Assembly: GCF_963921235.1 (NCBI RefSeq)
Contig: NC_086108.1
Coordinates: 32,862,001-32,926,000 of the forward strand
DNA from: Mobula hypostoma
Taxonomy: Eukaryota
Direction: 5' to 3'
DNA length: 64,000 nucleotides
Shown: positions 13,034-46,186 of the stretch, piece after piece
How the letters are laid out: each line of letters opens with the position of its first letter
Position numbering within the stretch: position 1 is the stretch's first letter
The notes under the pieces: generated by a model
Databases searched by the model: none
What the model was told of the DNA's origin: nothing
Seen by the model: only the letters and a program-made list of their open reading frames with translations
Position numbers and translations under genes: made by a program

Positions 13034-13407
13034 CTATTTGAGTCCCCATAATCTTAGGAAGGTCTGCAGGTTATTGGATGACAGCCACATATATTCCACC
13101 AGGGTAAACTGTAAATACCCCATGATAAATCCGCAAAGAACATCCGTCACATTGTGTCTTCCTAGCATCACTCTTGAGAGTCCCACAATGAACACCCACA
13201 GCACGACCAAAATGCGAAGTGGAACAGCTAAAACCAAGTGATTAAGGAAAAATCGACCTCCCATCGCTGCTCTTGTTGCATGTCCTGATGGGAAGGAGTA
13301 TCTGTCCACAGAAAATGTAGCAAACATATCCATCCTGTTGTGTGTGGGGCGCCGCCTGCGGACCAATGACTTGACAATTCCAACCAGGACCAGGTCTAAG
13401 ATTAGAG
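13034..13407 (-). CDS. PLPP6: Phospholipid phosphatase 6, coding exon 2 (PAP2 catalytic domain, stop TAG)
   Basis: Acceptor TTTCCTTGTTTAG| ends at 13408. G+CT gives Ala and an in-frame [18 protein letters not shown]1 [10 protein letters not shown]2 PSGH and C3 [12 protein letters not shown] are intact, as in PLPP6 (PLPP7 has degenerate motifs). The joined CDS is 481+374=855 nt, i.e. 284 aa plus stop. Confidence 0.95.
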
Positions 13408-14156
13408 CTAAACAAGGAAACAAACTATTGTTACTATTACATGCAGGAATACCACGAAGTGTGCAAATAAAGCATTTCTAAAGCAACAAAACATCTTGAA
13501 CTAGTGAATCGATTTGAGACAGAAGCAGATTAGGGCAACTGACCAAGATTTGGTTGAAAAAGTATGTTTTGATGAGCATCATAAAAGATGAAAGGCAGAG
13601 AGATGAAGTTTTAGAGAGGATATTACAGAACGTGGGTCCAAGGGAGTAGAAAGGCTGAACATTACTATTGAAATAATTAGGACTGGGCAAAGAGTCTAAT
13701 GAAGCACTGCAGAGAATAGGTTTCAAAAACTGCAAGAAATACTGTGGTGCTAGGAAGTTTGTGAATCCTGCAGAATTTTCTCTATTTCTGCATAAACATG
13801 ACCTAAAATGTGATCAGACTTCACAGAAGTCCTAAAACTAAATAAAGAGAATCCAATTAAATAAATAACACAAAAAACATTATACTTGTTAGTTATTGAG
13901 AAAAATAATCCAATATTACATGTATTTACCATATAACCATATAACAATTACAGCATGGAAACAGGCTATCTCAGCCCTTCTAGTCCATGCCGAACTCTTA
14001 CTCTCACCTAGTCCCACCGACCTACACTTAGCCCATAACCCTTCATTCCTTTCCTGTCCATATAGCTGTCCAATTTAACTTTAAACGACAACATCAAACC
14101 TGCCTCAACCACTTCTGCTGGAAGCTCGTTCCACACAGCTACCACTCTCTGAGTAA

Positions 14157-14260
14157 CACACATCAAAGTTGCTGGTGAATGCAGCAGGCCAGGCAGCATC
14201 TGTAGGAAGAGGTGCAGTCGACGTTTCAGGCCGAGACCCTTCGTCAGGACTAACTGACTT
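14157..14260 (-). mobile_element. Penelope-derived short element with 12-bp TSD CTCTCTGAGTAA
   Basis: TSD at 14145-14156 and 14261-14272. The empty site is visible in the related CR1 copy at ~24611. Confidence 0.9.
14215..14252 (-). ncRNA. Minimal type I hammerhead ribozyme motif (Penelope-associated)
   Basis: Minus strand: UAGUC CUGACGA AGG-GUCUCGG-CCU GAA ACGU C^GACUG. Stem I is UAGUC/GACUG, the core is intact, and stem III is reduced to the palindrome ACGU. Confidence 0.75.
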
Positions 14261-17200
14261 CTCTCTGAGTAAAGAAGTTCCCCCTCATGTTACCTCTAAA
14301 CTTTTGCCCTTTAACTCTCAACTCATGTCCTCTTGTTTGAATCTCCCCCACTCTCAATGGAAAAAGCCTATCCATGTCAACTCTATATACCCCCTAATTT
14401 TAAATACCTCTACCAAGTCCCCCCTCAACCTTCTACGTTCCAAAGAATAAAGGCCCAACTTGTTCAACCTTTCTCTGTAACTTAGGTGATGAAACCCAGG
14501 TAACATTCTAGTAAATCTTCTCTGTACTCTCTCTATTTTGTTGACATCTTTCCTATAATTCGGTGACCAAACTATACACAGTAATGTGAACCTTCTACAA
14601 AAGCTATTTGCAGTCAGGTGTTCCAATCAACGAGATGAGATCTGAGGTGTGGGTTGTAGAGGTGCCCTGTCCTATAGAAAAAAAGACTCCAAGTCAGGTT
14701 ACTGACAGAGGCTGTTCTTCTCAAGAAAAATCTGTTTATGTGCCTCAAACAAAAAAACTTTCAGAAGACCTTAGAAGAAGAATTGTAGAGATGCATGAAG
14801 CTGGAAAAGGCTACAAAAGCATTTCTAAAGACCTGAGTGTTCATCAATCCACAGCAAAAGAAATTGTCTACAAATGGAGGAAGCTCAGTACTGTTGCTAC
14901 TCTCCCTATGAGTGGGCATCCTGGAAAGGTCACACCAAGAGCACAACGTGCAATGCTGAAGGAGGTGAAAAAGAACCCAAGGGTAACAGCAAAAGACCTG
15001 GCAGAAATCTCTAGAACTTGCTAAAGTCTCTGTTTTTTGTGTGCTCACTATATATAAAAAAACACCAAACAAGAATGGTGTTCATGAAAGGACATCACGG
15101 AGGAAACCACTGCTCTCCAAAAATAAAACATGGCTGCGTGTCTCGAGTTTGCAAAAGACCACCTGGATATTGTACAACGCTTCTGGGACAATGTTCTGTG
15201 AACAGATGAGACACAAGGTGAACTTTTTGGCAGAAATGCACATTGCTTTGTTTGGAGGAAAAAGGGCACTGCACACCAACACCTCATCCCAACTGTGAAG
15301 CACGGTGAAAGGAGCATCATGGTTTGGAGCCGCTTATGCTGCTTCAGGGCCTGGGCAGCTTGCAATCGCTGAGGGAACAATGAATTCAAAATTGTATTAG
15401 GACATTTTACAGGAGAATGTCAGGGTAGCAGTCCGTCACCTGAAGCTTAATAGATGTTGGATAATGCAACAAGTCAATGATCATCAGAAAGACAAGAGTA
15501 AATTAACAACAGAATGGCTTAAAAAGAAGAAAATTTGTGTTTTGAAATGGCCGAGTCAAAGTGCTGATGTTAATCCTGTAAAAATGTTGTGGAAGGACCT
15601 GAAGCAAGCAGTTCATGCAAGGAAGCCCAGCAATATCCCAGAGTTGAAGCAGTTTTCTAAGGAGGAATGGCTTAAAATTCCTCCAAGCTGATTTACAGGA
15701 CCGATCAACAGTTATACATGTATCACTGGATCATTTTTCTCAATAAATAAATGAACAAGTATTATGTTTTTGTGTTATTTATTTAACTGGGTTCTCTATC
15801 TAATTTTAGGACTCGTGAAGATCTGATCACATTTTAGGTCCCATTTATGCAGAAAATTCTACAGGGTTGATAAACTTTCTAGCACCATTGTAGCTGAAGA
15901 TAAGTGTTGACATGGTCAGTAGGAAAGCTATGAAGAATCTTGCAAATGAAGAATGAGCATTGTAACATTGAAAATTGCAGGAGTAGAAACCACTGAAGAC
16001 CAGTAACCACAGGCATTGCCGGCAGAAACTTGGACAAGCATAATTATATGGGGAAAAGAAATGAGATGCCAAAAGTTGATTGGAACACCTAAGCCTGGAG
16101 GCAAAATAGGGATGCAGGTTTCAGCAGACGATAAACTGAGGAAGGGTGACGGTAAGGAAGTGTGATATGAGGCCCTGGAATGGTCCACAGGAGTGCTGAT
16201 GAGCCAGAATTGGAAGTACCAGCATGAATGATGTTTTGTCTTCTAATGATTTTTCTGAAGAGCAGCATCTACTATATAAATTATAAATATGAAGGGAACA
16301 AAAGAAAGATCTTTAGTGGACTGAAAAGGGAAAAAAAAACACAGGAAGCTAAACAATAAGTATGCCCGTCTACACTATAATACAAGAATTGCACCAAGCA
16401 AAAGGAAGTGTATAACAAAAGAGGAAAGTTGAACAAGGATGAAATGGTTAAATATATCACAGTTCCTCAGGATGGACTGATTACCATAGCCAAAGTTGCA
16501 AACAGCAACTTTTGTGATTTTAAAGAGGTGGTTTTTGGATAGGCTCAGTAATATGACTGGAAGGATTTAGGAAGCAACATCCTTATTCAGGTAATTTTCA
16601 TTGAAAGAGAAGGGGACTATGAGAGAGGCAATAACTTACAAGGGCAGTGAAGACTGCATACTTTTATTGTGAAAGGAGAATTAATTGTAGAAAATTTGAA
16701 ATCTGATTGGTGGGTATGGGGAGGGCATACAGAATGGAAGGCAGTATCTAAGAAAGCATACCATTTAACAATATCAGTAATGTTAGACACAAGAGGAGAA
16801 GTTGGGGTCAACTGTGCATCAGAATAGAATTAAGTAGAAAAGAAAGGGAACGATTTGAGTTTGGGGAGAATGTGCTTGGCAGGGTAGGTAAATGCAAGAG
16901 CGATAAATGCAATCTTAGTTCTAGGGCAGCAGAGAAAATTTGGAGAGGTTTGAGCCATTAGGTAAAGCGAAAGGAGGGAAATAGCAACTGGCATCTCAAC
17001 AGAGTAACCCAATGAAAAACTACTGCCTCTTTATATCTATTGGAGAATGGAGAGGATAGTTTGCTAGTATGTGACAGAAAAAATTGTGTTTTATCATTGC
17101 ATTTCCAGTAATTCTGATTAATTATCAATAATTGAAATAATAATCCTTAATGCATTGCAGTCAAATTTGCTAATGTTTGATGAGACTAACATTCTGCCAA

Positions 17201-17994
17201 TGATGTACAAGCCCACTTGAACTCTTAAGAGCTGATAAGAGTCTAATACAGAGGATGATGAAGATGAACATCATTCAGATGGCATCAAAAGTATTAGAGG
17301 GGCAATGATTCAGCAAATCAATGTCTGCATGATGGATAATGGGCTAGACATAGAAATAGTCAGGAACTCAATAAAATCAGTGGTGAGATAATCAAAATAA
17401 TCGAGATTTTCCAGAGTGAATATGTGGTATTTGGAGGATTAAGGGATGTGAGGAAGAAGGACAAGAAACCATTTCCCTTTTTGGTATCAGATACATTAAG
17501 AGGAAAATGAGAAATAGAAGTACAAATCTCAAGTCTTGAGCAGCAGCTAAAATACAGGGAAGGCTAAATTATACAGCTGTGCTTAGATGCTAGCTATAAT
17601 TAAACCACATCTTTAGGTACTTAGGAAAGGAAAAATAGATTTAAAAATCATAACTCTATAGGTGGATGTAGACTGTTGATTCCAACAAATTAAGGTCAAG
17701 GTGCTGAGATAATTGAAAGCTGCTAATCAAAAGGTTACAATAATAAAACCAAGCTGGTGCAACTTAAAAAGTCAAGTTGTTCAAGTAGTACAAATGTGAT
17801 AGTTTCCTATTGATTTATAATCATTTAATATTCATGAATCCAGATTAGATCACACAAATTATTGATAGAAATTTCCCAATAAATCAAATGTTACTAGTGC
17901 AATGATGGTAAATTACATCAGCTAGAGTGGTAAGTTAGCGAGTCACACTCCCATTGTGAAACAAGGCATTCAAAAGCAGAGCTGGCCAGAGTAA

Positions 17995-19790
17995 GACACA
18001 AGAAATAGGAGCAGGAGTCGGCTATCTCTCCCATCGAGCCTGCTCTGCCATTCAATAGATCATGGCTGATCTGGCCATGGACTTATCTCCACCTACCTGC
18101 CTTTTCTCCATAACCCTTAATTCCCCTACTATGCAAAACTCTATCCAACCTAGTCTTAAATATATTTACTGAGGTAACCTCCACTGGTTCATTGGGCAGA
18201 GAATTCCACAGATTCACCACTCTCTGGGCAAAGTAGTTCCTCCTCATCTCCGTTCTAAATCTACTCCCCTGAATCATGAGGCTATGTCCCTAGTTCTAGT
18301 CTCACCTACTAGTGGAAACAACTTTTCTATCTTATCTATCCCTTTCATAATGTTATGTTTCTGTAAGACCTCTTCTCATTCTTCTGAATTCCAGCTAGTA
18401 CAGTCCCAGTTGACTCAATCTCTCCTCATAGTATAACCCCGTCAACTCCGAATCAACCTAGTGAACCTGCTCTGCACTGCCTCCAAAGCCAGTATATTCT
18501 TCCTCAAGTAAGGAAACTAGAACTGCACGCAGTACTCAAGGTGCGGCTACAGTTGCAGCATAACCTCCCTGCTCTTAAGTTCAATCCCTCTAGCAACAAC
18601 GGCCGACATTCCATTTGCCTTGACAGCCTGCTGCACCTGCAAACCAACTTTTGTGATTTGTGCACGAGCACTCCCAAGTCCCTCTGCACAGCAGCATGCT
18701 GCAATTTTTTTTTACCATTTAAGTAATAATCTGCTCTTTTATTTTTCCTTCCAAGTGGATGACCTCACATTTGCCAACATTGTACTCCATCCGCCAGACC
18801 CTTGCCCACTCACTTAACCATCTATATCTCTCTGCAGACTCTCCGTATCTTCTGCACAATTTGCTTTTCCACTCAATTTAGTACCATCAGCAAACTTAGA
18901 TACACTACGCTTAGTCCCCTGTTCCAGATCATTAATGGATATTGTAAACAGTTGCGGGCCCAGCACTGACCCCTGTGGCACACTGCTCACCACTGAGTGC
19001 CAACCAGAGTAACACCCATGTATCCCAACTCTCTGCTTTCTATTAGTTAACCAATCCTCTATCCATGCCATTACATCACCCTCAAATCTATGCATCCTTA
19101 TCTTGTGATAAGTCTTTTATGTGGCACCTTATCGAATGCCTTCTGGAAATCCAAGAAAATAATGTCCATCTATTGAGGTCCTCACCTTCCATCGCACTAT
19201 AACATCTCTCTTTAGCATGTTAGATGTGTCCTCCACCATGAAGACTAACACAAAATAGTCATTCAAAGCCTTGGCCATTTCCTTATTACCCAATATCAAT
19301 TCCCCCCTCTCGTCCCCCAAGGGACCTACATTCACTTTAGCCACTTTTTTCTGCATTATATAATAAAAACTTTTACTGTCCATTTTATATTTTGTGCTAA
19401 TTTATTTTCATAATCTAGCTTCCCTTTCTTTATTGCTTGCTTAGTGGTACTTAGTTGCTTTTTAAAGTTTACCCAATCTTCCAGTATCCCACTACTCTTG
19501 ATGACTTTGTACTCACGAGCTTTTAGTTTGAATTCTTTTATTTCCTTAGTTATCCGAGGCTGACACTCCCCTCCCTTACTGTCCTTGCTTTTAACTGGAA
19601 TATACTTTTGTTGAGCACAGTGAAAAATTCCTTTGCAAGTCTTCTACTGTTCCTCAACCGTCCCACCCTATAGCCTGTGTTTCCAGTCTATGCTGGCCAA
19701 ATCCTCCCTTATCCCATTGTAGTCTCCATTGTTTAGGCATAATACACTGGTTTCAGATTGAACTATTGCACCCTCTATTTGTCTGAATGG
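17995..19790 (-). mobile_element. CR1/HER1-type LINE fragment (RT to 3' end)
   Basis: WIEDWLTNRKQRV..SSVPQGSVLGPQLFTISINDL..SKFADGTKL. Confidence 0.9.
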
Positions 19791-22589
19791 ATCTGCAATT
19801 TAAGAGGGTAACCACTGTAACAAAAGAAGCTCACATTAGCAGATGACAATATTGATAACGAATAAAGCAAATGCAATTGATCAAGTAGCCAGATCTTCAC
19901 TGCAAGACCATCCAACACAACCCCGTGTTACTGTGAAATCCAATGGAGAGATATCACAACATGACATGGATCAGTATTAATATCATTTAACCGCCATTAT
20001 TTCTTTACTAACTGCTCAGTGAATTCCTAACCTCGAAATATAGTAAGAAAACTTGAATCATTTTACAAGCAATTTTGATTAGGATTTGATTCCATTTGTG
20101 AGAAAGGCCATTAGTAATTCAGTCACCACTTCACTTCCCTCTATAGATGGAGCTAGTCTCCTGCACTTTCTTAAGGAGATGCACGTGTGAAATTATTCCT
20201 CAAGCACAGACAACACCCTCCCCCCAACCCATTCTATGAATGTGCAGAACCAGAATTCTCAATCCCCATTCATTTTAAGTAAAACTATTTATTTTGGAAC
20301 CCATTCATAGCAGGAATGTCTTCTGCAAAGGCATGAAGGCTTAGTATATGGATAGGCAAGGAACTCTGGGAATCTATCAATATGAAGTCTTCACTCAGAG
20401 TGGTAAAGCCATAATTATTAGTACAAGCTGTACACAAAATTTGCTTTTAATAAATTTTTAAAATCATGTTTGGGATGAGTCTGTACCAACAAAAGCATTC
20501 TGAAAACATGAAAGTATAGACCAAATCATTTATGAAGTGTTGGTACAGTTGTAATATATTAAACTCATTTCATGCGTTAGGGTTACAAGCATGTAACTTC
20601 ACTTAGTTGGAGAGCTGCTCAAACCTACATCTCTCTTGTAAGACTGAAAAGGAATGTACGTCATATTTTACATACATACCAGCTGATTAGCTGCTGCAAT
20701 GCCCATCTTAAACTGGAGAAAACTATATGGAGCACAGAGTTAGTGTTAAATTAACATGATTATCATTTCTTATTCTTGCTTATTTTAATATGTAACTGCA
20801 TAGCAATGTTCTGTGATTAAAGAATCAGAACAATGAAGTAGCTGCTGGAGGTGATACAATTGACAAATTGGTTTATTATTAACATATGCACTGAAATACA
20901 GAGGAAATATTTGTCTTTTGCGTACCATCCATACAGATCAATTCATTACAATGGCACATTGAGGTATTACAAGGTAAAACAATAGCAGAACACAGAATTA
21001 AGTATTACAGTACAGAGAAAGTGCAACGCAGATAGACATTCAGGTGCAAGGTTACAATGAGGTGGATAAGGTCAAGAGTCAAACTTATTGTACTAAGGAA
21101 CCACTCAATAGTCTTATAACAGTGAGACAGAAGCTGTCCTTGAGCTCTATCTTCTGCCTGATGGGAAAAGGAAAAGAGAAAATGTCTGGGACAGTGTGAA
21201 GCAACTGTGCTTCTCCTAAATACATAATATTCAAGAATTCTGTCTTAGAATCTTATCAGGAAATGTAAAATAATGTACTTAATTTGATATTAGAAAACTT
21301 CCACAAAAAAGAAACAAAGCTGGGATGAGGAGAGAGAGACAGACCATCAGACAGAGGAAAATGACACAGAAAAATACTTACAGTCTCCATCAAAGTTAAA
21401 CATTTTAAGTCCAATATATTAATTGCTTGAATTCATTTCAGGAAAAAAAGTGTTCAGAAAAGCAGTCAATTCACGTTACCTTCTTCCAAACTAGAACCAG
21501 AAATCTACAAGGATTTGTCAATATGCCAACTTCTCTCATAATTAACATTCAAACGATCTGATCACATCGAGGTTTTGGAACCTGCATTCACTTTCTGTTA
21601 ATGAATGATGAAGCAACACACAAGTAATGAATTTGTGTCTATCTAATGAAGGGAAGCCAAATGCAAAATTATTTCATCTTGGGTCAGAACATCCACAGAA
21701 ATTCTGTTTACCACAAACTGGCCAAAGGTAGAGTATGAAGAGTCTGAATACCTGAAACTTGTCATTAAAGTACTGCTGACTTATTTTACTGGCATTCTTT
21801 CACTTCCCATCTGCCACAAGCAAAACAAACCTGTTTCTCTTCACTCAGCCTTTTTCGGGCGGTTAGTCAGGAAGAAACTCATTTTTATGGAAGGAAGATG
21901 CAAGAACAGGAACTGTCTTTGGGTAGGGAAAATCAGACTACAGAAATCAAACTAAAAGTGACTGTCCTGCATTTGTTTGGCCAAGAATGAATAAATATCA
22001 GCCTAGCCAACTTGCAAATTTTAAACACAAAATGCCTTGGGAACATGGATTCGAAACTGCCACATGGCTAATTTGTCTTTCCAATTAATACCACATTTAT
22101 TTTAATGCATAATAATTTTATAGGTAAAAACTAATTGAGAATAAAATGCTAGGAACAGCAAAGTATTTGTCACTTGTTTGAAATACTCATTGATCGGCAT
22201 TAGAATGAAATGCATGGTTATACTAACAATTTGGAGCTGAACTGCTGAGTCAATTACTTGTCTCAAAATGTATAGAAAAAATGTAACCGAAAGAAAAATC
22301 ACTGCAATGTGAGAAAAATATTGGTCTTGCACGTTCAAATGCTTTTAAGTACAACAGTGCTTGGTAAGTCTTACGAGCTAGTAAAGTATTCTACGTACAT
22401 TTTAGCATGCCTTTACTAACCAAGTTCCAATTTGTAACCTTCTAATCCTAGGATTTAATAGAAGGTATTGCTGTAACCTGAACTGATCCTTTAGGCAAAA
22501 CGGCTAGATAAAGTGGGTAGTAACTTATTCATGTAGCCAAATGACAACAATTTCCCAAAGCAGAATCTTGCTTCTCTCCTTGAAAACAT

Positions 22590-23465
22590 ATCTACTAAGT
22601 GGATGATACGAAGATAGGTAGAGGGTTAGGTAGTGCTGAGGAAGCAATGCAATTGCACGGAATACAGTGTTGGGAAATGTATGAAAATGTATTTTGGTAA
22701 AAGGAACAATAGTGTGGACTATTATCTAAACAGGGAGAAAATTCAAACAGCAGAGGTGCAAGGGAACTTAGGAGCCCTCGTGCAAAACTCCCAAAAAAGT
22801 TAATTCACAGGTAGTAAAGAAGGCAAATGCGATGTTGGCATTTATTTCAAGGGGAAGAGAATATAAAAGCAGGGAGATAATGCTGAGGCTTTATAAGACA
22901 CTAGTCAGGCTGCAATTGGAGTTTTGTCAACAGTTAAGGGCTCCTTATCTCAGAAAGGATGTATTGTCATTGGAGAGAGTCCGGAGGAGGTTCATGATGA
23001 TAATTCCAGGAATGAAAGGGTTAACATATGAAGACGTTTGGCAACCTTGGGCCTGTGCTCACTGGAATTTAGAAGAATGCGTGGGGATCTCAGTGAAACC
23101 TACCGAATGTTGAAGGACTAGATAGGGTGGATGTGGAGAGGATGTTTCCTTTGGTGGGGGTATCCAGAACTAGAGTGTACAGCCTCAAAATTGAGGGGTG
23201 ACCTTTTAGAACAGAAGGAAAGAGGAAGTTTTTAGCTGAAGTGTGGTGAATCTGTGGAATGCTCTGCCAGGGACTGCGGTGGAGGCCAAGTCCATGGGTA
23301 TATTTAAAGCAGAAGTTGATAGATTCCTGATTGGTCACGGCATCAAGGGATATGGTGAGGGGGTAGGTGTATGAGATTGAGTGGGATCCGGGATCAGCCA
23401 TGATGAAATTGTGGAATGGACTCGGGGGCTGAATGGCCTAATTCTGCTCCTGAATCTTATGGTCT
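22590..23465 (+). mobile_element. CR1-type LINE 3' fragment
   Basis: MLAFISRGREYKSREIMLRLYKTLVRLQLEFC, with a 3' tail ending CTTATGGTCT. Confidence 0.85.
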
Positions 23466-24477
23466 AAAATGTGAACAATAAACTAACATTCTCTTCTCCT
23501 TTCATAGGATATTAATAAACATTTTACTTTAATTTCAGACTAATAATAACTCAAAAAATTTAAAAATATCCAGATTCTGAAAGTCTGACTTTAAAGAAAA
23601 ACTGGGAATGCTCGGCAGGTCTGGCAGCATCTGTGGAAAAAGAAACTGAATTAATGCTTCAGATCAAACATTTTTCATCAGAACTCTTTCACAGTTTTAA
23701 AAACTAGAAAAAAAAAGTCTTCAATCTATAATTTGGTGGTTCCCATTATAAAAAAGTATTCTTTTATTGTTTCTTTTCATGCACCCCACCCAAGGACTAT
23801 GATGCTAATTTCTGCTCTGTTAGAGAGTATCAACTTTTCCCAAGTGAGATAAACGTATAACATCTGTTCTCAGAATTAATGGGGATCACGTTCTGGCCTC
23901 TAGAGGTGCAGTTCATTTTGTACAAACATCACTTTCTATAAGTAAGCTGCTTTTGTATTATTTCTTGCGTAGGTTAGACTTTATTCTATTTGAAGCACAA
24001 GGTGGAAGACACATCTCCACCTACTCTTTATCTCCTTTGAAACTGCAGTATCTGTGAGTCTTAGCTATTTGTTACTATTTATAAACACTTAGTAGATATA
24101 TTTTGAAAAAAGTATGTTTATCGTTGTGCCATGAGTTTACTCTTGTTCACACTGCATAGTTATGGAGTGTTGTGTATGTGTATTATCTTCGTTAACACTG
24201 GATGTGAGAATATTCAACAGTATTAGAATATTCAGGCACTTGATGGTTCTGTATTGAATTTAATACATATTTTACTTAACTTTGCAGTTTCACAGAAAAG
24301 AGATCTCATTAAAAACACTAAGGAAAGCTTCCACCTCAGGCGATTTTTGAAAAGTTGCTTAGCTCACTGTGTACATATGCACAGTGAAAGCAAGAGAGTG
24401 AAAAGAAAGCTCATCTTCAAAAGCATCGTCCATAGACTGGAGAAGTGTCTAAAAGCTGTAGATGATAATTTCAGCTT

Positions 24478-24797
24478 CCAACCCGAGCAACATCAATTGG
24501 TCCATAACCCTCCATTCCCTTCCTGTCCATATATCTATCCAATTTAACTTTAAACAACATCGAACCAGTCTCAATCACTTCTGCTGGAAGCTCGTTCCAC
24601 ACAGCCACCACTCTCTGAGTAAAAAAGTTCCCTCTCACGTTACCCCTAAACTTTTGCCCTTTAACTCTCAACTTGTTTGAACCTCCCCCACTCTCAATGG
24701 AAACTCTATCAATCCCCCTCATAATTTTAAACACCTCTATCAAGTCCCCTCTCAACCTTCTACGCTCCAAAGAATAAAGACCTAACTTGTTCAACCT
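24478..24797 (-). mobile_element. CR1 3' fragment nested in BEL
   Basis: RLNKLGLYSLERRRLRGDLIEVFKIMRG; similar to 13929-14580. Confidence 0.85.
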
Positions 24798-26847
24798 TAT
24801 GCTCAGCGTGAAGTTGAGATGCAAATAGAGAAGGTACGTATAGATATGGAGAAGGCACATATAGACATGGAGAGAGCATTAAGTGTGCTCAAGGAAGACC
24901 ATGAAGCCAAGGCTTCCTCAGCAGAGGCAAAAATGAGTGAAGCAGCAACTGACTTAGATAATTGTGAATCTATAACTGAAACTACTCATATTGCCATCAC
25001 AAAAGCCAATGCATCTTACTAAAGAATGTGTCCAACTAGAAAAAAAGTGCTCCAGCTCTACAAGAAGCAGCTGTCCTCACCACTCAACCAGCCTGTCTTT
25101 CACTGTCCAAGTACTGACAGTCAAGGTCTACAGCAGCAAAGATCCACAACACCCCCTTCCTTCGTTCAACCACAGCAAACACCTTTGTCAAAAAGTTGCT
25201 ACTGATGCCAAACTCATCTGCACGGACATGGGCAGACTAAACTCCCACCTATTCCAGGAAACACATTTTGTGCACCAGTCTCCACAATGTTCTCATTCAG
25301 GAGCTGCAGGTGCATTAGATTTGGCTTGGTATCTGGCTGGTCGAGACCTAGTCACAGCTGTACTGAAAGTGTTCAACATCCAGTCTGCCAGTTACCTGTA
25401 GTGAAAATCAAGATATTGCAATGCCATGGAAGGACTAGGTCTCAAACCTAGTGAAGAGTTAGGCCAATGGTTCCCAAAGTAGCAATATTGAACACCCCTC
25501 CCTCCCCCCCCCCTCCCGGGATTAGTGGGGCTTTCTAAAGGAGTGATAAAGGAGACAGTCAGGGGCACTCAGTAGTAAGGGAGAGCAGCTGAGGGAGAGG
25601 GATTATAATTTAAGAAATGAATTATTTATTATACACATTTGATCCTCAGTGCCTCATAATTGATTACAATGATCACGTAACCACCTCATCTCTTGCTAAC
25701 TCATTGTTCTCTTAGAGCAATACTTGGGCATGCACTGTGATCCCAGAAGCAATTTCTGTCTGCACACTGAGAAATGACCCGGGACCTTTGCAGGCTGGAA
25801 AAGAAAAGAGAGCACTCTAGTTGTTGCTGCTGTCCTCGGGCTGGCAAGGAATTAAAGGACATCCTCTTGGTTCAGCGCTACTTTAAAGTGCATTAAGTTC
25901 TTTAAGCATTTAATTAGGTTGCCCCTTTAAAGCTTTTGCTTTAAATCCGATAATGAATCTGTTGCCAATAGTGTTTTGCGACAAACGTGGTGAGAACTCC
26001 AGTGTTAAATGGAGAAGCAATTGTTATTGCAAGGAATATGTAATGCTGTAGAATAACCTAAGGCTGTGGAAGCTCCTTTACAAATTCAAATCTGTCCTCT
26101 TACAATGCCTGACAGCTAAGACTTAAGACTTTGCTCGAAGCACTTAATAATTGTTGAAAAGCTATATGACACTTCTGTACTTAGCATATCATGAGAAATC
26201 TGGATTGAAAAAAATCATGTTATTTCTGGGCCTGTCCTGCACATTATTGTCATTCACTACTGTAGTACAGTGTTAGAAACATTCTGAAACTGAAAACAAG
26301 TTTGCCAACACTTCACAATAAAACATGCGTGTTTCATACAACATTTCATTGCTCATTGCTAAAACTGGAAAGCCCCATATAATTTGGAGGAAAACTGATT
26401 CTAACAGCAGAAATGGAGGTTCTGAGTGCAGTTTTGCACATCACCAGACCAAATACTTAAAACGATTCCGCTCAGTGACAACTCTATTCAAAGATGAATA
26501 CATGAAATGTCTGAGAATGTGGAAGACACATTGTGCGACATATTTAGGACACAAGAATTTGCTCTGCAGTTGGATGAGTCAGCAGTGCCAGGCAACAAAC
26601 CTTTGCTTCTTGGTTATGGCCCCTTCCATAAAAGAAAGAAGCATGGTTCAAGAGTTGTTGTAAGGGGACCAAAAGCATATTATGAAGGGGGGAGTCAATA
26701 TTTCGGGTTGTGGAGCAATATTTCAAAGGCAAGGACATTCAGGTCACCAGCATTCTTGCTTGTGCAACAGCTGGGGCACCATCAATGACAGGACGTCACA
26801 GTGGGGTTATTAATTTCTTGAAAAGAACAACTGTACCTAACATACAT

Positions 26848-26940
26848 AACCCTTCGTCTCGGCCTGAAACGTCGACTGCGCCTCTTCCTATAGATGCTGC
26901 TTGGCCTGCTGCGTTCACCAGCAACTTTGATGTGTGTTGT
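26848..26940 (+). mobile_element. Penelope-derived short element (partial hammerhead motif)
   Basis: GTCTCGGCCTGAAACGTCGACTGCGCC...; near-identical to 61268-61352. Confidence 0.8.
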
Positions 26941-27014
26941 TTAATGAAACAATCTTCAATTGCGAGATTATATGAATCTTATGAAGATCTAATCAGTTGC
27001 CTCTACATATCTGT

Positions 27015-27632
27015 CCAAGGCGGGTGGAGAGAGAGCAGCGCACCGTGTGTGCGCGCAGCCCTCTGGTGAAAAATGATATCGTATCCATTAAATAGGGGCC
27101 GTGGACAATTCTGATTTGATGGAGAATGGTCGTGAAAGCACAGAGGAACATCTGGAGAAATTTCTGAAACGCTCATTCGCTGCTGTCTTTACTGCGTGGT
27201 CAGGGATCTTTCGGAGGGTAGGCCTCAAAATCCCCGGCTTTGCCTGCTGTTGGCGACCGAGGTTGAGGTCGAATCGTTCGGACAGAGATGGCGCTCAGTA
27301 CTTGGTGTCGGAGAGTTGATCAGAGCTCAAAGTTTTCGGATGACTCAGAGTCGGACTGTGGTCGGCATGGCAGGGACAGTTCTTCCTTCTCCCGTCTGCG
27401 TGAGATGTGGGACATTTGAGACTTTGAACTTTTACTGTGCTCATGGACTTCATTAAGTTATGGTATTGTTGCACTGTTGTAACTATATGTTATAATTATG
27501 TGGTTTTGTCATTTTTTTCAGTCTTGGTCTGTCCTGTGTTTTGTGATATCACACCAGAGGAAATATTGTATCATTTCTTAATGCATGCATTACTAAATGA
27601 CAATAAAGAGGACTATGTGTCTTCATAATCTA
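27015..27632 (+). mobile_element. CpG-rich non-autonomous retroelement-like insertion
   Basis: Interrupts the hAT remnant. CpG-rich 5' part and a T-rich 3' part ending AATAAA...CATAATCTAA. Family unassigned. Confidence 0.45.
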
Positions 27633-30196
27633 AAAGTTAACTCTATTTAAGTGCAACACTGACCGTCATGACCTTTTCCAATTTCTGAGCCTCTGAATTG
27701 AAAGAGAAATAAAGAATACCAGATGATGATCTTTAAGTATACTGGGTGAGCTGCATAATGACACGTCAGAGAAATTTCAGGAACTTCCCTTGATCCAAAT
27801 TCCAGATTGGGTAATAAAACCATCTCTGAACACATGTAATAAGGAATTAATTGGATCGATTGAGGAAGAACTGATCTTGCTACAAAATGATATTGAGTTG
27901 AAGCAGAGGTGCAAAAAAAAATTCAGACTTTTGGTTGCAGAAAGAAATCTCTGAATCCCTGCACTGTGAAAAAAAGGTCAAGATGTTCTATACTGCCTTT
28001 CCAACATCATATTCAGTGCAGCGCAGTTCCCCTGCAGTCACCCAACTTCTTTCAAAGCAATGAAACAAGAAAGGTTAAAGCAATTCACATTAATAATCCA
28101 GCTACAGGTTTACAAATGCTGCTTTAAAGGCTTGACAAATGCTATGGCTCTCCAGAGGCAATCGAAGAATCTCTCTTCAGTAGACTTGAACATTTTTCAA
28201 AGCTAGAGGAGTTTGCAGACCTGTTGTCAAAACTGCAAGCCGCAAAAAAAAACAAGGGTTACCTACAGTGGAGAAACTACTGAACAATATCCAGAAACAG
28301 TGGATAACTGTTCAGATATAAAATGAAGCATCATGTGAAATGACTATAGTTTTATGCTCTCAACTTCCGGTAACACCTCATTCAAAGAAAGGTCTCCAGC
28401 AGAACCATGGAAAAACAAAATACCAATCACATCTGCAAAATTGAACCCCAAAAGACAATGTCCTGCCCTTAAGAAACCCCGCCCCTTAAGGAAGTGCAGA
28501 GGACTCGGAGAAAAACTGCAGGCGGATCGGAGACAGTTTCTAAAGGAGCACTCAATATATCAAATGTTGTGCTTCAACAGAGCACCAAGCAAACGATTGC
28601 GAAGCTATCATACACTGCACTGAGTATCACAGTGACCAGCACATATCAGCACTTCATTCAGGGCCAGCACTTTGGGCTACCATTTGTGCTGGCACACCTA
28701 TAGCAGAGCAGTGGGGAGCCAACTGATCATCCCTCAGATGTAGCTACATCTTCGTACACAGAGGTACGCGGGAAAGGCTTCCAAGGCAACTCCTACTCTG
28801 GAATATGTCTAGCCAACATCCTGAGCAAAAAATAAAGGCATACGTGATATTAGATGATCAGATTAATGTGTCATTGGCAAAAATCACCATTTGTTGACAT
28901 ATTCAGTATTTAAAGTTTTGTTTCCCCACACACTCTGAAGACGTGTTCTGGAACACGCTGGAAGAGGAGACAGTCGATTTGACATGAGTCAATAGAAGGG
29001 GAGATCTGCTTACCTTTGCTAACCCTCATTGAGTGCAACCATATTCCCAACAACAGGGATGAAATACCAACCAAAAACTGCACGCTGTCATTCATATCTT
29101 AAGGCCATAGCTGACAAGATCTGAGATTCTCCCGTTGCTTGGCGGGGACGCCATCCATGTACAGAAGGTGAATGAACAGTGCGATGGTCAGCACAATGCA
29201 CCTTATGCTCAATGACTGGACCTGGGTTGGGTCATAGCAGGTGAAGTCTTCCCCAACGGTGCTCAGCAGCCCACTGACAGCACTAATATCCCAGAGAAGA
29301 GGTGCCCAAGTAATTTCAGACCCTGAGAGAGTAAACTCTGTATGAAAGAGAAGATTGTAGGTAAACAAAACAGGCGCCCTGACATACTTACCTCTGCTCA
29401 ATCAGATTTAGGCAAGCTGGTCTTCTGTCACTCGGAAGATGATTATAACGTGGCACCTTCCATCGAAGATGATGTCTTCCTTTGAATCATGAACAAAGTC
29501 GTCAAACACTTGGGTAGCTTCCTTTCCTTTCTGCTCTCCACAACTCTTACCAAACAACAAAGAGCAGGCCCCTAGTTGGTCCATGTCCCTCAATTGCATA
29601 TTGAAAAGAAAACCATAAATGAAAGATCGTTACATGGAGTTCATGGAGAGATTCTTCAGGAACAATCATACTGAGCCAGCTCCTCCACCAGATACCAATA
29701 AATTTACCACCCCCAGAAACATGCAGAAATATGAACTATCTTTGATTGAAGTGTGAAGTTCAAAGTCATATCACGAAACAATGTCCTCTTGCAAGGTCTG
29801 GACCTTAATAACAGTCTGCTCAGGGTCCTCATGCACTTCTGAACTGAGTCTGTCGCAATGATGGCTGACTTCAGACAAATATCCCACAGTTTCCTTGTGA
29901 GATAGGATCACTGAGACTACCTCAGACTCTTGTGGTTTCATGACCACCAAATGGACAATAAGATTCTGGAATACAACATGAGAGTTCTTTTATTTGGTAA
30001 CTGTCCCATATCAGCTGTGGCAATCTAGTGAGGAGAGCTAGAGAGGGAGAGAAGGAATTTGGGACTGAAGCACGGAGGTACATAGAAAGGATCTATATAG
30101 GGACGGTCTTAAATCATTTCCTAGTGCAGAAGAAGCAATCCGCGTGCTGAAAGGAGCACAAGACACGTTGGCACAGTGTAATCTCAGACCTCATGA

Positions 30197-30616
30197 TTTT
30201 TACTTACGGTCCATTACACCACTGGTGTCTAGGACAGCAATGAAGGTCCTCCACCTCTGATGGTGTTCAGGACTTCCTCCATCGTGCCAGTAGCTTTCTC
30301 AGGTTTTCACTACCATCAGTCATGCAAATCCTGGGTGGCTCTCCGGAATACCGTCACACTAAAATGTAGAAAGATTCTTCATTGCTGTTTCCATAACAAT
30401 TCTGTTTTACCACTCAAGGTTAATAGCTCTGAGCTAAACTCCTGAACCTGGAGGACCGGTGAACCACTCTTAGTCTGGCCTCTACTCTTTGACCTGTTTA
30501 GCATGTGTGACCCTACCAAGAGCCAAAGCATAAGGCCCTGACTCAAGCCTACGTAGCTCTCCAGGTCACTGAGGCACACAAGCCCCCAAACCACCAGGTT
30601 GTGGTTCTTTTGGAGG
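30197..30616 (-). mobile_element. RTE-related short insertion in BEL pol
   Basis: Flanked by imperfect direct repeats CAGACCTCATGA / CAGATCTCATAA. The BEL frame (NLRLHKIASNS-like) resumes afterwards. Confidence 0.55.
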
Positions 30617-33244
30617 CAGATCTCATAAGATTGCATCCAACAGTGCTGAGGTCATGCAATGTTTCCCATCTGAAGATCTGGCCAAATAATCTTGATATTG
30701 GACAGGACTTCCCTGCTCTGCAGTGCAGTCTGGGCCTTGGATGGGACCTCATTACCAATCCCCTTACTTTCTGGGTTGCTGATACCAAAAGACCTTTTAC
30801 ATGTCGTAGCATGCTATTGAATATCAACAGTCTATTTGACCCTCTTGGATTTGCCCCTCCAGTCAGTATTCACAGACATTTTGTGTTAAAGATTGACCTC
30901 AGACATTTGTGGATGGAAATGGCCCACTTCCTAATGAGAAGCATGAGTTGTGTCCTTCCCTTCTGGATCTTGTAGGCTTTAAAATTCCAAGAACCTACAG
31001 AACAATTTCAGTATTTACAGCCCAAAAGAAAAACAGATCTGCACCTTCAGTGATGCATCAACTAAAGCAATTACTGTTGTTGCATACCTGAAGGTCGAGA
31101 TGCTGCTGGATATAGTGAAGTTGGATTTATCCTGGGTAAGGCAAAGCTTGTTCCCAAACCAGATCTCACCACTCAAACTTGGTGCTTCTGTTCTAGCAGT
31201 TGAGATGGCAGAAATGATAACCAAAGAGGTGGACATAGAACTAGACGATATCAAGTTCTTTACATAAAGCAAGGTCATGTTTAGTTATTTATTTAATGAA
31301 ACAAAGAAATTCTATTTTTATGTACATAATATGATTCAACATATCAGGCAACCAGCTCAGAAGAGCCAATATCCTACTGATTTCAACCCAGCTGATCATG
31401 CCACAAGATGGCTTCAAACTAACCAGTTCACCCTCTCCTCATGGTTAACTGGCCCAGCATTTCTTGCTGATCCCTAACAGGAACAGCGTCAGCAGGAAAC
31501 TTTCGACTTAGATGACCCTGAAGTAATGTCAAAATATGTCCTCAAGTGTCGACCAAAATCACTCAATTATCACTGCTCCAACTTGGGAGTGAACACTTCG
31601 TGTTTTTCAAGCTGTTTTTCGCCTACCAGAGCAATTGCCCGGCTCTCACACATTGCTCATTCCTTTAAAGGAGTAGCCAAACAGCCTCTGTGGTGGTTGG
31701 CACATTTATAAGCAACCTTTCAGCACAAAGCAACTGAATTGGGCAAAAGTTACAATCCTTCTTGTTCAAAGACAGATTTATGCAGAGATGTGCAGTGAAT
31801 CACAAAGCATGTGTCTCTCCCAAAACAAGTCCCCTTAGTAAATTCTGCCCCTTTCTAGACTCTGAGGGGATATAGCAAGTCGGAGAATGGATAAAGGCGG
31901 CATGATTCACTTCATAACTCACTCAATCATTATTCTGGGTAAACTCCTTGCCATCTGTCTACTCATTAGACATTGCCATGTGCAAGTATGTCATCAAGAA
32001 TGGCATTTTCGAAATGAGAACGGTTAAAGACTCTGTAGTAAGACTGTTTTCAAGACCAATCCGACACTATTTTTCTTTTGCCAAAGACATAATGATTATT
32101 TGACTTTCAGTTTCAGTAGTTAAGTTTGACATCCTATGGATGCCAGGTGGGGGGTGTTCCCGCCACTGGAGGCGTAGTTTGTTTTATATGAACATCCCTT
32201 CCTGTACATAAGCTGTTTTCTTAATATCATTTCTTGCGCAGGTTAGTTTTTATTCTATTTGAGGTGCACGGTGGAAGACACACATCACCAGCCACTCCTT
32301 ATCCACCCTTGAAACAGCAATATCTGTGAGTCTTAAGTGTTTGTTAATATTGGTACACAATCAGTAGATATATTTTAAAGGACGTATTATGTCTTAAGTT
32401 TAGAGTTGCGCCACGAGTTTACTCTTGTTCACACTGCATAGTTATGGAGTTTTTCTATGTGTATTAACTTGGTTAACACCGGATGTAAGAATAATCAACA
32501 GTATTAGTATATTCAGGCATGTGATGATTCTATATTGAATTTAACTATGTCTTTTACTTAACTTTCTGCAGTTTCACTTTCTGCCTTGAGTGATTTTTGA
32601 GAAGTTGTTTAACTCACTGTATGGCTCTGTACATACAGTATGTATAGTGAAGGCAGTAGAGATCATGCTGCTAATGGCCTAGGATGAAATAATTTACCCT
32701 CACAGAATCAGCTAGGAGTAGACTGGGTTATGGTCCCATAAATCCTTGAAGGGCAGTGATTATCAGCATGCATTAGCTCTAGAATTAACAACCATTTGAA
32801 ATGACCAAAGGAACTATAACTTTTAATGAAGCATTTCCAGTGCGTGCATATTCAGATATGGATATCTTAATGTTAGGTAAGCATATGCTACAGACAGAAT
32901 TAATTAGTTAAATGGATTTTATTGGATCACTGATTTACCTAGTCTTTTCCAAAATTAATTCCTGGAATGAGGACTTCCATTTCCTAGGCTGACATCTAGG
33001 TTGTCCTTAACTGAGAAAACTTGCTAGGACATTTTAGAGGGCAGCCAATCTGCATACCTGTGAGCGTAGAATTGAAATCACACACAAACTAGAGAAGTTA
33101 AAGATGACAAATTTTCCTCTTTAGTAAACTAGCGGTTGTATTTATGACAAATACATTTTTATTTTCATATTTAAAATAACTGTATATATTAATTTAGCTC
33201 TAGATTTTTAAACAACTATGGTAGCATTTGATCTGGTATCATTT

Positions 33245-33745
33245 CTGACACCTCCATTCCCTTCTGTCACTCAGTCTCCATCTCTGGAGACAAACTGTCA
33301 ACCAACATCTTTTATAAACCTAACTGATTCCATGATCATCTTGACTATACCTCTTTCCACCCTGTCTTCTGTAAAAATGCTATTCTCTTTTCTCATTTCC
33401 TTTGTCTCCATTGCATCTCTTCCCAGGATGCAGCCTTCCTTTCCAGGATATCAGGGATATTTCCTCCTTCAAAGAATGTGGTTTGCCTTCCATCATTCCC
33501 TCACCTACATTTCCTCTATTTCCCAAACGTCAGCGCTCATCCCATCTTTTCACTGCCTTATCAGTGATGGAGTTCCTCTTGTCCTTACCTACCATCCCAT
33601 GAGCCTCCGCATCCAACACATCCTCCGCAACTTCTGCCATCTCTAGTCTTGAAGAAGTCTTGGCCCGAAGTATCAACTGTTTATTCATTTCCATATATGC
33701 TGCCTGAGCTGCTGAGTTCCTCCAGCAGCTTGTGCGTTGCTTTGA
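33245..33745 (+). mobile_element. Penelope-like element fragment: RT C-terminal region joined to a degenerate hammerhead-bearing terminal repeat
   Basis: SVSISGDKLSTNIFYKP/TDS..HLDYTSFHP..CKNAILFS..FL and GVPLVLTYHP are PLE-type motifs. They are followed at 33645 by TAGTCTTGAAGAAGTCTTGGCCCGAAGTATCAACTG. Confidence 0.75.
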
Positions 33746-34204
33746 TCTGGTATGTCAATATTATTCCAGCAATTAAGGCAACACTATTTTCCCTGACTAC
33801 AGCATCTTGCTTTAAACTGAGATTCCCTTTTGTTGAAAATCACACCATAATAATCAAAATCCAGAAAAATTGATGAGAAATATAGAAACAGAGAACATTT
33901 ATTAAAAAAAAGATAATTCTGCACTTTTACCTCCTCTGGTACTTAATACAGTAAGTGTTAGCTACTGCAATTTATGAAGACAAATAACTTTCGCAGTGAA
34001 GAGCATGACCATGGGGACTATTGTAAAACCAAAGGGCCTAGGAGTACAAGTACATGGCTCATGGAAAGCGATATCACAAGTAGACAGACTGGTGGGGAAG
34101 ATGTAGGTATGCTGGCCTTTAGCAGTCAGGGCAATGAGTATAGAAGTTGGGATCTTATGATGCAATTGTCCAAAAGGTCGGTGAAGCTCCATTTGGAATA
34201 TTGT

Positions 34205-34399
34205 AAACACGAGGAAATCTGCAGATGCTGGAAATTCAAGCAACACACACAAAATGCTGGTGGAACGCAGCAGGCCAGGCAGCATCTATAGGAAGAGGTA
34301 CAGTCGACGTTTCGGTCCGAGACTCAAAATGTCGACTGTACCTCTTCCTATAGGTGCTGCCTGGCCTGCTGTGTTCCACCAGCATTTTGTGTGTGGTGC
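34205..34399. mobile_element. Inverted-dimer Penelope-derived element with 12-bp TSD
   Basis: Long palindrome centred at ~34320. TTGGAATATTGT (34193-34204) and TTGGAATACTGT (34400-34411) flank it. Confidence 0.85.
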
Positions 34400-34885
34400 T
34401 TGGAATACTGTGTACAGTTTTGGTCACCCTGCTATAGTCGTCATCATCATCATCATGTGCTGTGTTGTATGATGTGAGCGATCATGGTCCCATGACCATG
34501 ATCGGTCTTGGCAAATATTTCTAATGCAGTAAAAATTCCATTAAGCTTTAAAGAGTGCAAAGGATATTTCCTGAGATGTTACCAGAACTCAAAAGACTGA
34601 GCTACAGAGAGGCTGGGCAAGTTGGGGCTCTTTTCATTGGAGCGTAGGTGAATGAGGTGTGCCCTTTTAGAGTGGCAGAGATAGGGTTAACACACAGTCT
34701 TTTTCCCAATGTTGGGAAATCAAGAGCTAGAAAACAGAGGTTTAAGGTGAAGGGGTAGAAAGTTAATTGAAACTGAGGAACAACTTTTTCAACCCAAGAG
34801 GTGGGCAGTGTACAGAATGAACTGCCAGAGGAAGTGGCTGAGGCAGGTACATAAACAATCTACAAAAGATACTTGGGCAGGTATA

Positions 34886-36503
34886 CAGTGGCATGCAAAA
34901 GTTTGGGCACCCCAGTCAAAATTTCTGTTACTGTGAATAGTTAAGTGAGTAGAAGATGAACTGATCTCCAAAAGTCATAAAGTTAAAGATGAAACATTCT
35001 TTTCAACATTTTAAGCAAGATTAGTGTATCATTTGTTTTGTACAATTTTGGAGTGAAAAAAAAACAAAGGAACACCATGCAAAAGTTTGGCCACCCCAAG
35101 AGATTTGAGCTCTCAGATAACTTTTACCAAGGTCTCAGACCTTAATTAGCTTGTTAGGGCTATAGCTTGTTCACAGTCATTCTTAGGAAAGGCCAGGTGA
35201 TGCAAATTTCAAAGCGTTATAAATACCCTGACTCCTCAAACCTTGTCCCAACAATCAGCAGCCATGGGCTCCTCTAAAACAGCTGCCCAGCACTCCGAAA
35301 ATTAAAATAAATTATGCCCACAAAGCAGGAAAAGGCTATAAGAAGATAGCAAAGCGTTTTCAGGTAGCCATTTCATCAGTTGGTAATGTAATTAAGAAAT
35401 GGCAGTTAATAGAAACGGTGGAGGTCAAGTTGAGGTCTGGAAGACCAAGAAAACTTTCCGAGAGAACTGCTCGTAGGATTGCTAGAAAGGCAAATCAAAG
35501 CCCCCGTTTGACTGCAAAAGACCTTCAGGAAGATTTAGCAGACTCTGGAGTGGTGGTGTACTGTTCTACTGTCCAGCGACACCTGCACAAATATGACCTT
35601 CATGGAAGAGTCATCAGAAGAAAACCTTTCCTGTGTCCTCACCACAAAATTCAGCGTCAGAAGTTCGCAAAGGAACATCTAAACAGGGCCGATGCATTTT
35701 GGAAATAAGTCCCGTGGACTGATGAAGTTAAAATAGAACTTTTTGGCCACAATGAGCAAAGGTATGTTTGGAGAAAAAAAGGTACAGAATTTCATGAAAA
35801 GAACCCCTCTCCAACTGTTAAGCACAGGGGTGGATCGATCATTCTTTGGGCTTGTGTTGCAGCCAGTGGCACGGGGAACATTTACTGGTAGAGGGAAAAA
35901 TGAATTCAATTAAATACCAGCAAATTCTGGAAGCAAACATCACACCATCTATAAAAAAGCTGAAGATGAAAAGAGGATGGTTTCTACAACAGGATAATGA
36001 TCCTAAACACACCTCAAAATCCACAATGGACTACCTCAAGAGGCGCAAGCTGAAGGTTTTGCCATGGCCCTCACAGTCCCCCAACCTAAACATCATCGAA
36101 AATTTGTAGACAGACCTCAAAAGAGCAGTACATGCACGATGGCCCAAGAATCTCACAGAACTAGAAGCCTTTTGCAAGGAAGAATGGGCGAAAATCCCCC
36201 AAACAAGAATTGAAAGACTCTTAGCTGGCTACAGAAAGCGTTTACAAGCTGTGATACTTGCCAAAGGGAATGTTACTAAGTACTGACCATGCAGGGTGCC
36301 CAAACTTTTGCTTCGGGCCCTTTTCCTTTTTTGTTATTTTGAAATTGTAAAAGGTGGAAATAAAAAAGTAATCTTGCTTAAAATATTAAAGAAATGTGTC
36401 ATCTTTAACTTTATGCCTTTTGGAAATCAGGTCATTTACTCGCTTAGCTATTCACAGTAACAGAAATTTTGACCAGGGGTGCCCAAACTTTTGCATGCCA
36501 CTG
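34886..36503 (+). mobile_element. Full-length Tc1-like transposon (1618 bp, IR/DR type); transposase is a pseudogene
   Basis: TA|CAGTGGCATGCAAAAGTTTGGGCACCCC...GGGGTGCCCAAACTTTTGCATGCCACTG|TA, with inner direct repeats. RSGRPRK, WTDE, QQDNDPKH and WPSQSPNLNIIENL are present, with stops at ~35706 and ~36107 plus frameshifts. Confidence 0.95.
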
Positions 36504-38852: not shown

Positions 38853-39398
38853 AGTCTGCCACGCTCCACATCCAACCCCAAATCACAAACCAGCCTGCCA
38901 CGCTCCACATCTAACCCCAAATCACAAACCAGCCTGCCACGCTCCACATCCAACCTCAAATCACAAACCAGCCTGCTACGCTCCACATCCAACCCCAAAT
39001 CACAAACCAGTCTGCCACGCTCCACATCCAACCTCAAATCACAAACCAGCCTGCTACGCTCCACATCCAACCCCAAATCACAAACCAGCCTGCCACGCTC
39101 CACATCTAACCCCAAATCACAAACCAGCCTGCTACGCTCCACATCCAACCCCAAATCACAAACCAGCCTGCCACGCTCCACATCTAACCCCAAATCACAA
39201 ACCAGCCTGCCACGCTCCACATCTAACCCCAAATCACAAACCAGCCTGCCACGCTCCACATCCAACCTCAAATCACAAACCAGCCTGCCACGCTCCACAT
39301 CCAACCCCAAATCACAAATCAGTCTGCCACGCTCCACATCCAACCTCAAATCACAAACCAGCCTGCCACACTCCACATCCAACCCCAAATCACAAACT
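38853..39398. repeat. Minisatellite, 39-bp unit x14
   Basis: Unit AGCCTGCCACGCTCCACATCCAACCCCAAATCACAAACC with few substitutions. Confidence 0.97.
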
Positions 39399-39599
39399 GC
39401 AGATGGCGAGTGGCAGTCTGCAGTGAGGCCAGTCAGTGAGTGCAGCACGAGGCTGGTTCTATTTGCCTTCCATTGACCTGTGCGTGTTATAATACTTACA
39501 GAACACATATAGATCCAGTCATTACTTCTATTACAATTGTTTTACTCTTTTAAATCTAAATTCTGCGTCTAAGAATGATTAATAATACTTCCTTAAAAT

Positions 39600-41670: not shown

Positions 41671-42499
41671 ACCATTTATCATTCTAGACAGCAGTGCAAA
41701 CTCAGTCCTGAGTATGCTGGGGATTGACATTAGTGGAGTTTTTCGGCATTAGAGAGTTGGGAAAATGGCAGAGGCATGAGGTCAGTAATGATCTTACTGA
41801 ATGTTGGAACATTGAATCACTATATTTCTACTGTATATATTTTAAATTTGAATAGTTTATAGATAACCAACTCTATATTTTTCCAGTACCATCAGCATTA
41901 AGCTAAACCTACTTTTTTCTGTAAATCTATGCTTGGAGTTACAGACATTTTTATTAAAGGAAATAAATCCTTGCTGTTCATTCTATTCAACCAGATGATT
42001 AAATTTCCCTCCAGGTCTAGCTAAGCCCTTTTCATAACCGAGGTACACCAGCTCTGACGATATCCTTGTAAAACGTCTGTAACCTCTTCAACATTACCAC
42101 GTCTTTATTCTTAATGCAGCATTCGAACTGTAGCCTTACTGCAGTACTAAACATCTTGTGCATGACCATTTACATTCTGTGCTCTGCCAATGAAGGGAAA
42201 TATTCTGCACTCCTTCACATTCACATAAACTGCCATTCCTGCTGTCATTGACTGAGTGAATGTACACTTTAAAATATTCTGAATTTTGTGGAGGAAAAGG
42301 AATCAGTTCAATCATACATGCCTTTACCTCGCTTGACTTCCCCAAAAACACCAAAACTGAATTCCAATTATCGCATTTCTAACTATCTTCTTGCTCTTGC
42401 TAACTGCCAGGCTTTGAATCATTTACACAGAAGGCTCCTCCATTTCTAAATAATCAATAATATCCCAAAACACATGCAGCACAGGCATTGATTTCTTTC

Positions 42500-44130: not shown

Positions 44131-44134
44131 TCAA

Positions 44135-45300: not shown

Positions 45301-45349
45301 CTCGTGCCACCTCAAACAATCATGCAACTGCTCTCAATGATTGCAGCCC

Positions 45350-46183: not shown

Positions 46184-46186
46184 TAC

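Follow-up and report, generated by a model that had tools for sequence, protein, structure and literature searches.

Minimal type I hammerhead ribozymes are found in the pLTRs of metazoan Penelope-like elements (PLEs). According to Cervera and De la Pena (2014, PMC4209133) a single minimal motif (min-HHR) shows no cleavage and its dimers are weak, and about 4,000 such motifs are given for coelacanth and 9,000 for Xenopus; cartilaginous fish are not named in the parts of that paper drawn on here. For the Anolis carolinensis Poseidon element PAc, the relevant sections of Frangieh et al (2024, PMC11167929) describe a ribozyme that cuts only with the element's protein, with no RNA-seq reads ending at its site, and two preferred 3' ends that delimit a tail of 30-40 bp. 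The intronic hammerheads of amniotes (RECK and others, PMC6155905) and the CPEB3 ribozyme (PMC10919898) are, in the passages used, single-copy and conserved across deep lineages, while the animal non-LTR retrozymes, which form tandem arrays with at least two ribozyme units, are reported from one chondrichthyan genome in the consulted part of the preprint (bioRxiv 10.64898/2026.07.22.740005). No dedicated paper on the family described below was found for rays in the literature covered, outside which lay most subscription journals and Repbase, as well as the supplements of PMC4209133 and of the preprint, which may list shark or ray motifs.

The motif considered here lies in an intron of the ray PLPP6 gene, within the 64-kb stretch of DNA that was analysed as a whole (the window). 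With a probability of roughly 0.88, it is a short end-repeat copy of an abundant Penelope-like retrotransposon that sits in older transposon debris, its hammerhead being a likely silent passenger.

The hammerhead motif in the PLPP6 intron

The PLPP6 protein of Mobula birostris maps to 46667-46209 (98%) and 13381-13037 (100%) on the minus strand of the window, and exon 2, which matches PAP2, is 100% identical to the M. birostris PLPP6 record, as befits a Mobula-like ray. The gene and the family copies in its intron are arranged as follows.

46187..46667, minus strand: coding part of PLPP6 exon 1, from mapping of the Mobula birostris PLPP6 protein
13408..46186, minus strand: PLPP6 intron of 32,779 nt, with GT donor at 46186 and AG acceptor at 13408
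34205..34402: two intronic family copies in inverted arrangement, each without the CUGANGA half
26856..26939, plus strand: family copy of 84 nt, antisense to PLPP6; its complementarity to the motif starts at loop II and takes in the cleavage site
14215..14252, minus strand: minimal type I hammerhead motif, from sequence, pattern match and folding
13034..13407, minus strand: coding part of PLPP6 exon 2, from the PAP2 domain match and PLPP6 identity

As the PLPP6 exons and splice sites are on the minus strand, the motif is in sense orientation, 808 nt upstream of exon 2. The preliminary description had reported a complete minimal hammerhead sense to PLPP6, about 810 nt upstream of the exon-2 acceptor, and both the minus-strand letters and the exon mapping bear this out; its reading of 14252-14215 was exact to the letter, and cleavage would fall between 14220 and 14219. 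The core is complete, with C3 U4 G5 A6 N7 G8 A9, G12 A13 A14, A15.1, U16.1 and H17 all present in the CUGACGA and GAAA segments. Helix I has 5 bp, within the 4-6 bp of the type I topology, and in place of a stable helix III there is a palindromic 15.2-16.2 stretch (ACGU), as in min-HHRs. Helix II has the expected unpaired base after A9 followed by a pair at 10.1-11.1, usually G-C and here a G-U wobble (U at 11.1). The stem II originally proposed, AGG/CCU, did not hold up, having a pairing probability of 0.02; a better parse is a bulged A and then GGGU/GCCU closed by a CUCG loop, with four pairs at probabilities of 0.87-0.97.

Scanned with a descriptor, the window contains one minimal hammerhead besides the present motif, a looser parse at 61258. 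Neither in the whole window nor in 14150-14320 did Rfam scans detect a hammerhead (E<=10); all they returned were sub-threshold hairpin hits. With no helix III, no Rfam hammerhead match and a probability of 6e-4 for the active fold, the motif is not a three-helix hammerhead of the amniote type. It is not a chance occurrence, as an exact 34-nt family pattern has 45,476 matches in the 3.48-Gb genome, evenly divided between the strands, versus 0 for a reversed control, and as the descriptor found 32 complete motifs in 1.59 Mb (31 of the family and 1 unrelated) versus 0, 0, 1, 0 and 0 in five shuffles. Judged by its sequence, 14215-14252 is a genuine copy of the Penelope-type minimal hammerhead, a known class; the core and stem match and the copy number thus agree with the original proposal of such a motif, with an ACGU palindrome replacing stem III, from an abundant family.

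Predicted folding of the motif favours inactive states, both as monomer and as dimer. In the 38-mer the pairing of the core with its own cleavage strand is worth -11.0 kcal/mol, versus -7.0 kcal/mol for the hammerhead fold, by nearest-neighbour energies, which leave out Mg2+ and tertiary contacts. An active form of the dimer, with 18 standard and 2 G-U pairs, can be constructed at -11.5 kcal/mol; two monomers come to -22.0 and the best dimer to -30.3 kcal/mol, which puts the active form about 19 kcal/mol behind the best dimer. In contexts of 238 and 438 nt stem I is lost in the predicted folds. A search of the PLPP6 intron for a second intact sense core found none. The antisense copy at 26856-26939, 12.6 kb away and transcribed earlier than the motif, could form a duplex with it of -158 kcal/mol.

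Two other features of the window were noted. In the head-to-head inverted family pairs at 61160-61387 and 34205-34402 the turning point lies inside the hammerhead, and the resulting long, perfect hairpins are the source of sub-threshold Rfam miRNA hits. The PLPP6 intron also contains a tandem array of 39-nt units (38736-39514) with open frames on both strands.

The Penelope-like family and its insertion

The family is linked to a protein-coding element at locus L032, where a near-complete RT-EN frame of a Penelope-like element is present in the genome. The frame (6018-8054, 679 aa) matches RVT_1 at E 2.5e-5 and GIY-YIG at E 6e-4, both below the Pfam curated cut-offs, and its translation contains DKG, YIDD and CCHH motifs and a Cx4CxxC linker between RT and EN. 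The family's end repeat follows the frame, and the longer family copies run upstream into it, as expected of the pLTR of an element encoding an RT with a C-terminal GIY-YIG domain. A CX2-5CxxC linker in this position is given as a trait of Neptune and Nematis PLEs, not of Poseidon, in the part of PMC8557442 consulted; the ray element carries such a linker. A PDB sequence search with the RT-EN frame gave nothing useful. A unit of 3.6 kb (97% identity) was also observed at both of the unlinked loci L031:1631-5261 and L032:4810-8431. It consists of an inverted 0.9-kb end repeat, a 5'-truncated RT-EN frame and then the end repeat, and the two loci agree in the inversion junction, which suggests that this inverted composite was copied as one unit.

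When stem II and its loop are freed, the family pattern has 64,120 matches, and 54,637 when the core is freed instead, so that the ray genome holds at least 64,120 intact minimal hammerhead cores. The 3' ends of 64 young copies fall into two groups about 35 nt apart, at +92 to +100 (24/64) and +122 to +129 (32/64) from C3. The two groups agree with the Anolis element, for which two internal RT starts and a tail are described. Among 57 young copies extending as far as the cleavage position, none starts at it, which indicates that cut RNA seldom served as template.

The 5' ends of young copies were seen to cluster, with 37 of 60 between -20 and +19 from C3 in both 3'-end classes and none at the cleavage site; the sample comprised window positions 8426, 14257, 26856, 34323, 60432, 61251 and 61255 and loci L036-L195 minus L176, chosen by an 88% filter for young copies that probably favours short ones. 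Genome-wide counts of 17-mers fall more gently, from 110,540 and 106,365 downstream to 78,146 and 65,619 upstream, the patterns being unmatched for subfamily. Such clustering over the front half of the motif may indicate where the RNA of the element begins.

The copy in the PLPP6 intron is a 5'-truncated piece within two older repeats.

13740..15500, plus strand: Tc1/mariner-like transposon relic, limits approximate, with PF25787 HTH_SB (E 9e-18) on 14590-15021
13928..14590, minus strand: CR1-type LINE 3' fragment hosting the Penelope piece, aligned over 67 aa (61% identity) with the C-terminal end of the RT frame of a LINE at locus L035
14155..14257, minus strand: Penelope-like pLTR end piece, 5'-truncated, 103 nt, 95% identity to the L032 copy
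14145..14156, no strand: first copy of the 12-bp target-site duplication; the final 2 bases fit the element end as well
14261..14272, no strand: target-site duplication, second copy

The 103-nt piece begins 10 nt ahead of C3 and ends at the shorter of the two family 3' ends, without the tail; it is followed by 3 extra bases at 14258-14260 and is 95% identical to other young copies. Its host, the LINE fragment 13928-14590, is presumably CR1. Contigs of other copies have empty-site joints that skip exactly 116 nt, and also 663 nt; as the 116-nt joints occur in organism A too, they may come from any CR1 copy. A joint from 13927 to 14591, at which the CR1 fragment is absent, is present in all four runs, and from the sequence the CR1 fragment appears to interrupt the Tc1-like transposon. 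Lying inside the CR1 relic, itself apparently inside the Tc1-like transposon, the hammerhead piece is the youngest of the three layers.

The identical insertion junction occurs once more in the genome, in another CR1 copy (locus L176, G000:C68:49041192). This was considered as an assembly duplicate and rejected: the host CR1 copy is only 88% identical and has a different 5' end, which points to an independent insertion there. A second insertion at the same base suggests a target hotspot in CR1 3' ends.

The element's protein probably nicked a TTA-rich target. Reverse transcription would have begun about 65 nt downstream of where cleavage falls, at the first of the two internal start points, and halted 5 nt beyond the front of stem I. 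As the copy extends those 5 nt past stem I, the template would have been uncut RNA.

Contigs from four sequencing runs were compared over 13380-14620, where the unique contigs end at about 13780, the point at which the repeats start. In the unique part of the intron 8 of 400 letters differ in organism B, 27 of 385 in C and 25 of 389 in E. A contig of 49-50 nt with the exact left junction is present in organisms A and B and is not among the eight pieces listed for each of C and D; in such contigs either flank is shorter than 31 letters, and C68 carries an independently formed junction of the same kind. This hints that the insertion is common to two close relatives, A and B. Relative to the CR1 flank, the contig depth added up across the Penelope piece was some 9-fold in organisms A and B and some 1- to 3-fold in C and D, while in E it fell short of the flank (runs X1, X5, X13, X17 and X18; depth is not a copy number), and this contrast hints at a recent lineage-specific burst of the family.

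Selection, orientation and the consequences for PLPP6

Across 121 copies the nine non-CpG core sites vary less than the other 77 non-CpG sites (mean 5.8% versus median 9.6%, p 0.011), so that selection acted on the motif, at least in source elements. The preliminary description had made conservation of the core nucleotides across family copies a test of its proposal, and such conservation is found. Likewise, ten core positions are kept in 83% of copies versus 71% for ten stem II and loop positions, a comparison unmatched for CpG. CpG sites within the motif have changed in about 30% of the 121 copies (C17 33%, 15.2 30%, 16.2 28%); after insertion copies decay in the core like dead DNA. The conservation favours a real ribozyme lineage and not a host function, and fits selection in source elements followed by ordinary decay. 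Position 11.1 (window 14228) was also observed to be divided between C (60) and T (55) in the 121 copies, with T predominating among the exact matches listed. The youngest wave of the family may have carried G-U here, instead of the usual G-C pair, as it spread.

Orientation relative to genes was scored in 1.59 Mb from six long genes, defined only by same-strand Laminin G exons. The 218 family hits divided sense to antisense as 30:34 with an intact core, 30:27 with a broken core and 45:52 when truncated. No sense depletion of complete motifs was seen in these introns: 14 were sense and 18 antisense (p 0.60), and those without a near opposite-strand partner were 8 and 10. The 95% interval of the sense share, 0.26-0.62, rules out strong purging of sense copies in the six-gene sample; the sample is small and mild depletion is still compatible with it. 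From the genome copy number, the chance of at least one sense motif in a 32.8-kb intron is 0.25-0.26, so that about a quarter of introns of the size of that in PLPP6 would be expected to have one by chance.

Within the silent-passenger reading, the motif, its nesting in older repeats, the target-site duplication, the copy number and the connection of the repeat with an RT and GIY-YIG frame count as established. The ribozyme would act in RNA of the element itself, either dimerised or helped by the element's protein, and would be conserved among source elements. In the intronic copy the core is predicted to pair with its own cleavage strand and there is no intact partner in cis, and it would seldom cut in the short interval before exon 2 is transcribed. 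The intact core and stems of this copy count against its being silent. The preliminary description had envisaged in it a latent cleavage site of every PLPP6 transcript, weak alone but open to activation by another family copy. That such a site has meaning for PLPP6 finds no support, given the expectation of about 25% by chance, the 14 sense motifs out of 32, the preferred inactive folds, the lack of a second intact sense core in the intron and the antisense copy. The motif would serve the retroelement, and regulation of PLPP6 is unsupported.

An alternative, thought unlikely, is conditional cleavage: expression of the Penelope family, in the germ line for instance, would supply RNA or protein that activates intronic copies in trans, and a fraction of PLPP6 and other pre-mRNAs would be cut, as a side effect of transposon activity rather than as a selected switch. 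The number of intact cores, the active dimer that can be drawn, the near-complete RT-EN frame in the genome and the reported activation of the Anolis ribozyme by the element's protein (in the sections of PMC11167929 consulted) are all consistent with this. However, the active dimer is by far the less stable, antisense copies are equally common and pair much more strongly, and no depletion of sense copies was seen in the six long genes. By analogy with Anolis, where according to the same sections the RNA must reach past the RT start sites, the stub probably also lacks the protein-binding part. The most far-reaching form of this idea, that family protein or RNA, once switched on, activates at least 64,000 intact cores in trans and cuts many host pre-mRNAs, PLPP6 included, is more improbable still; if true, transposon expression would be coupled to a transcriptome-wide intron-cutting response, with half of the intronic cores in sense. 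Cutting would seem to be rare, to judge from the even split between sense and antisense in introns and from the finding that no young copy begins where the RNA would be cleaved.

That the host has retained the hammerhead to tune PLPP6 splicing or output, in the manner of the amniote intronic hammerheads or the CPEB3 ribozyme, is very improbable: its sense orientation, intact core, closeness to the acceptor and the junction contig from another organism, with 2% divergence in the intron, would fit, but it belongs to the youngest layer of nested transposon debris, closely resembles other young copies, has neither a helix III nor an Rfam match, has a junction not among the pieces listed for two other organisms (which is not proof of absence), is matched by the chance expectation of a sense copy, and slow intronic ribozymes left splicing unaffected (Fong 2009, as quoted in the part of PMC10919898 used). 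As a silent passenger, the insertion is most likely of no consequence for PLPP6, and its value lies in the family.

Comparison with known systems

The comparisons that follow rest on the consulted parts of the sources cited. Like the amniote intronic hammerheads (PMC6155905) and the CPEB3 ribozyme (PMC10919898), the ray motif is sense, intronic and near the downstream exon. Unlike those, it belongs to a set of young copies numbering in the tens of thousands, is without helix III and lies in transposon debris. With the animal non-LTR retrozymes (bioRxiv 10.64898/2026.07.22.740005) it has in common a type I hammerhead from PLE pLTRs, but in contrast to their tandem arrays it is a single stub, with one ribozyme unit and a target-site duplication.

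The likeness to PAc (PMC11167929) extends to a hammerhead placed just 5' of two preferred 3' ends, an AT-rich target and no sign of cut RNA as template. The ray element differs from this Poseidon element in its Cx4CxxC linker, the Neptune/Nematis trait (PMC8557442).

The closest match is to the min-HHRs of metazoan PLE pLTRs (PMC4209133), with which the motif agrees in its type I form, full core, 5-bp helix I and lack of helix III, in the unpaired base between 9 and 10.1 and the palindromic 15.2-16.2, and, as a family, in occurring mainly as single motifs in truncated copies with frequent opposite-strand pairs. It differs in the U at 11.1 where C is usual, the ray family itself being divided between the two. 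In number the ray family, at 45,000-64,000 motifs or more, stands far above the published vertebrate counts, although the search methods differ, and being also young and uniform it is a good system in which to study the in vivo role of Penelope hammerheads, with thousands of identical sites that could be read in one RNA end-sequencing or nascent RNA-seq experiment.
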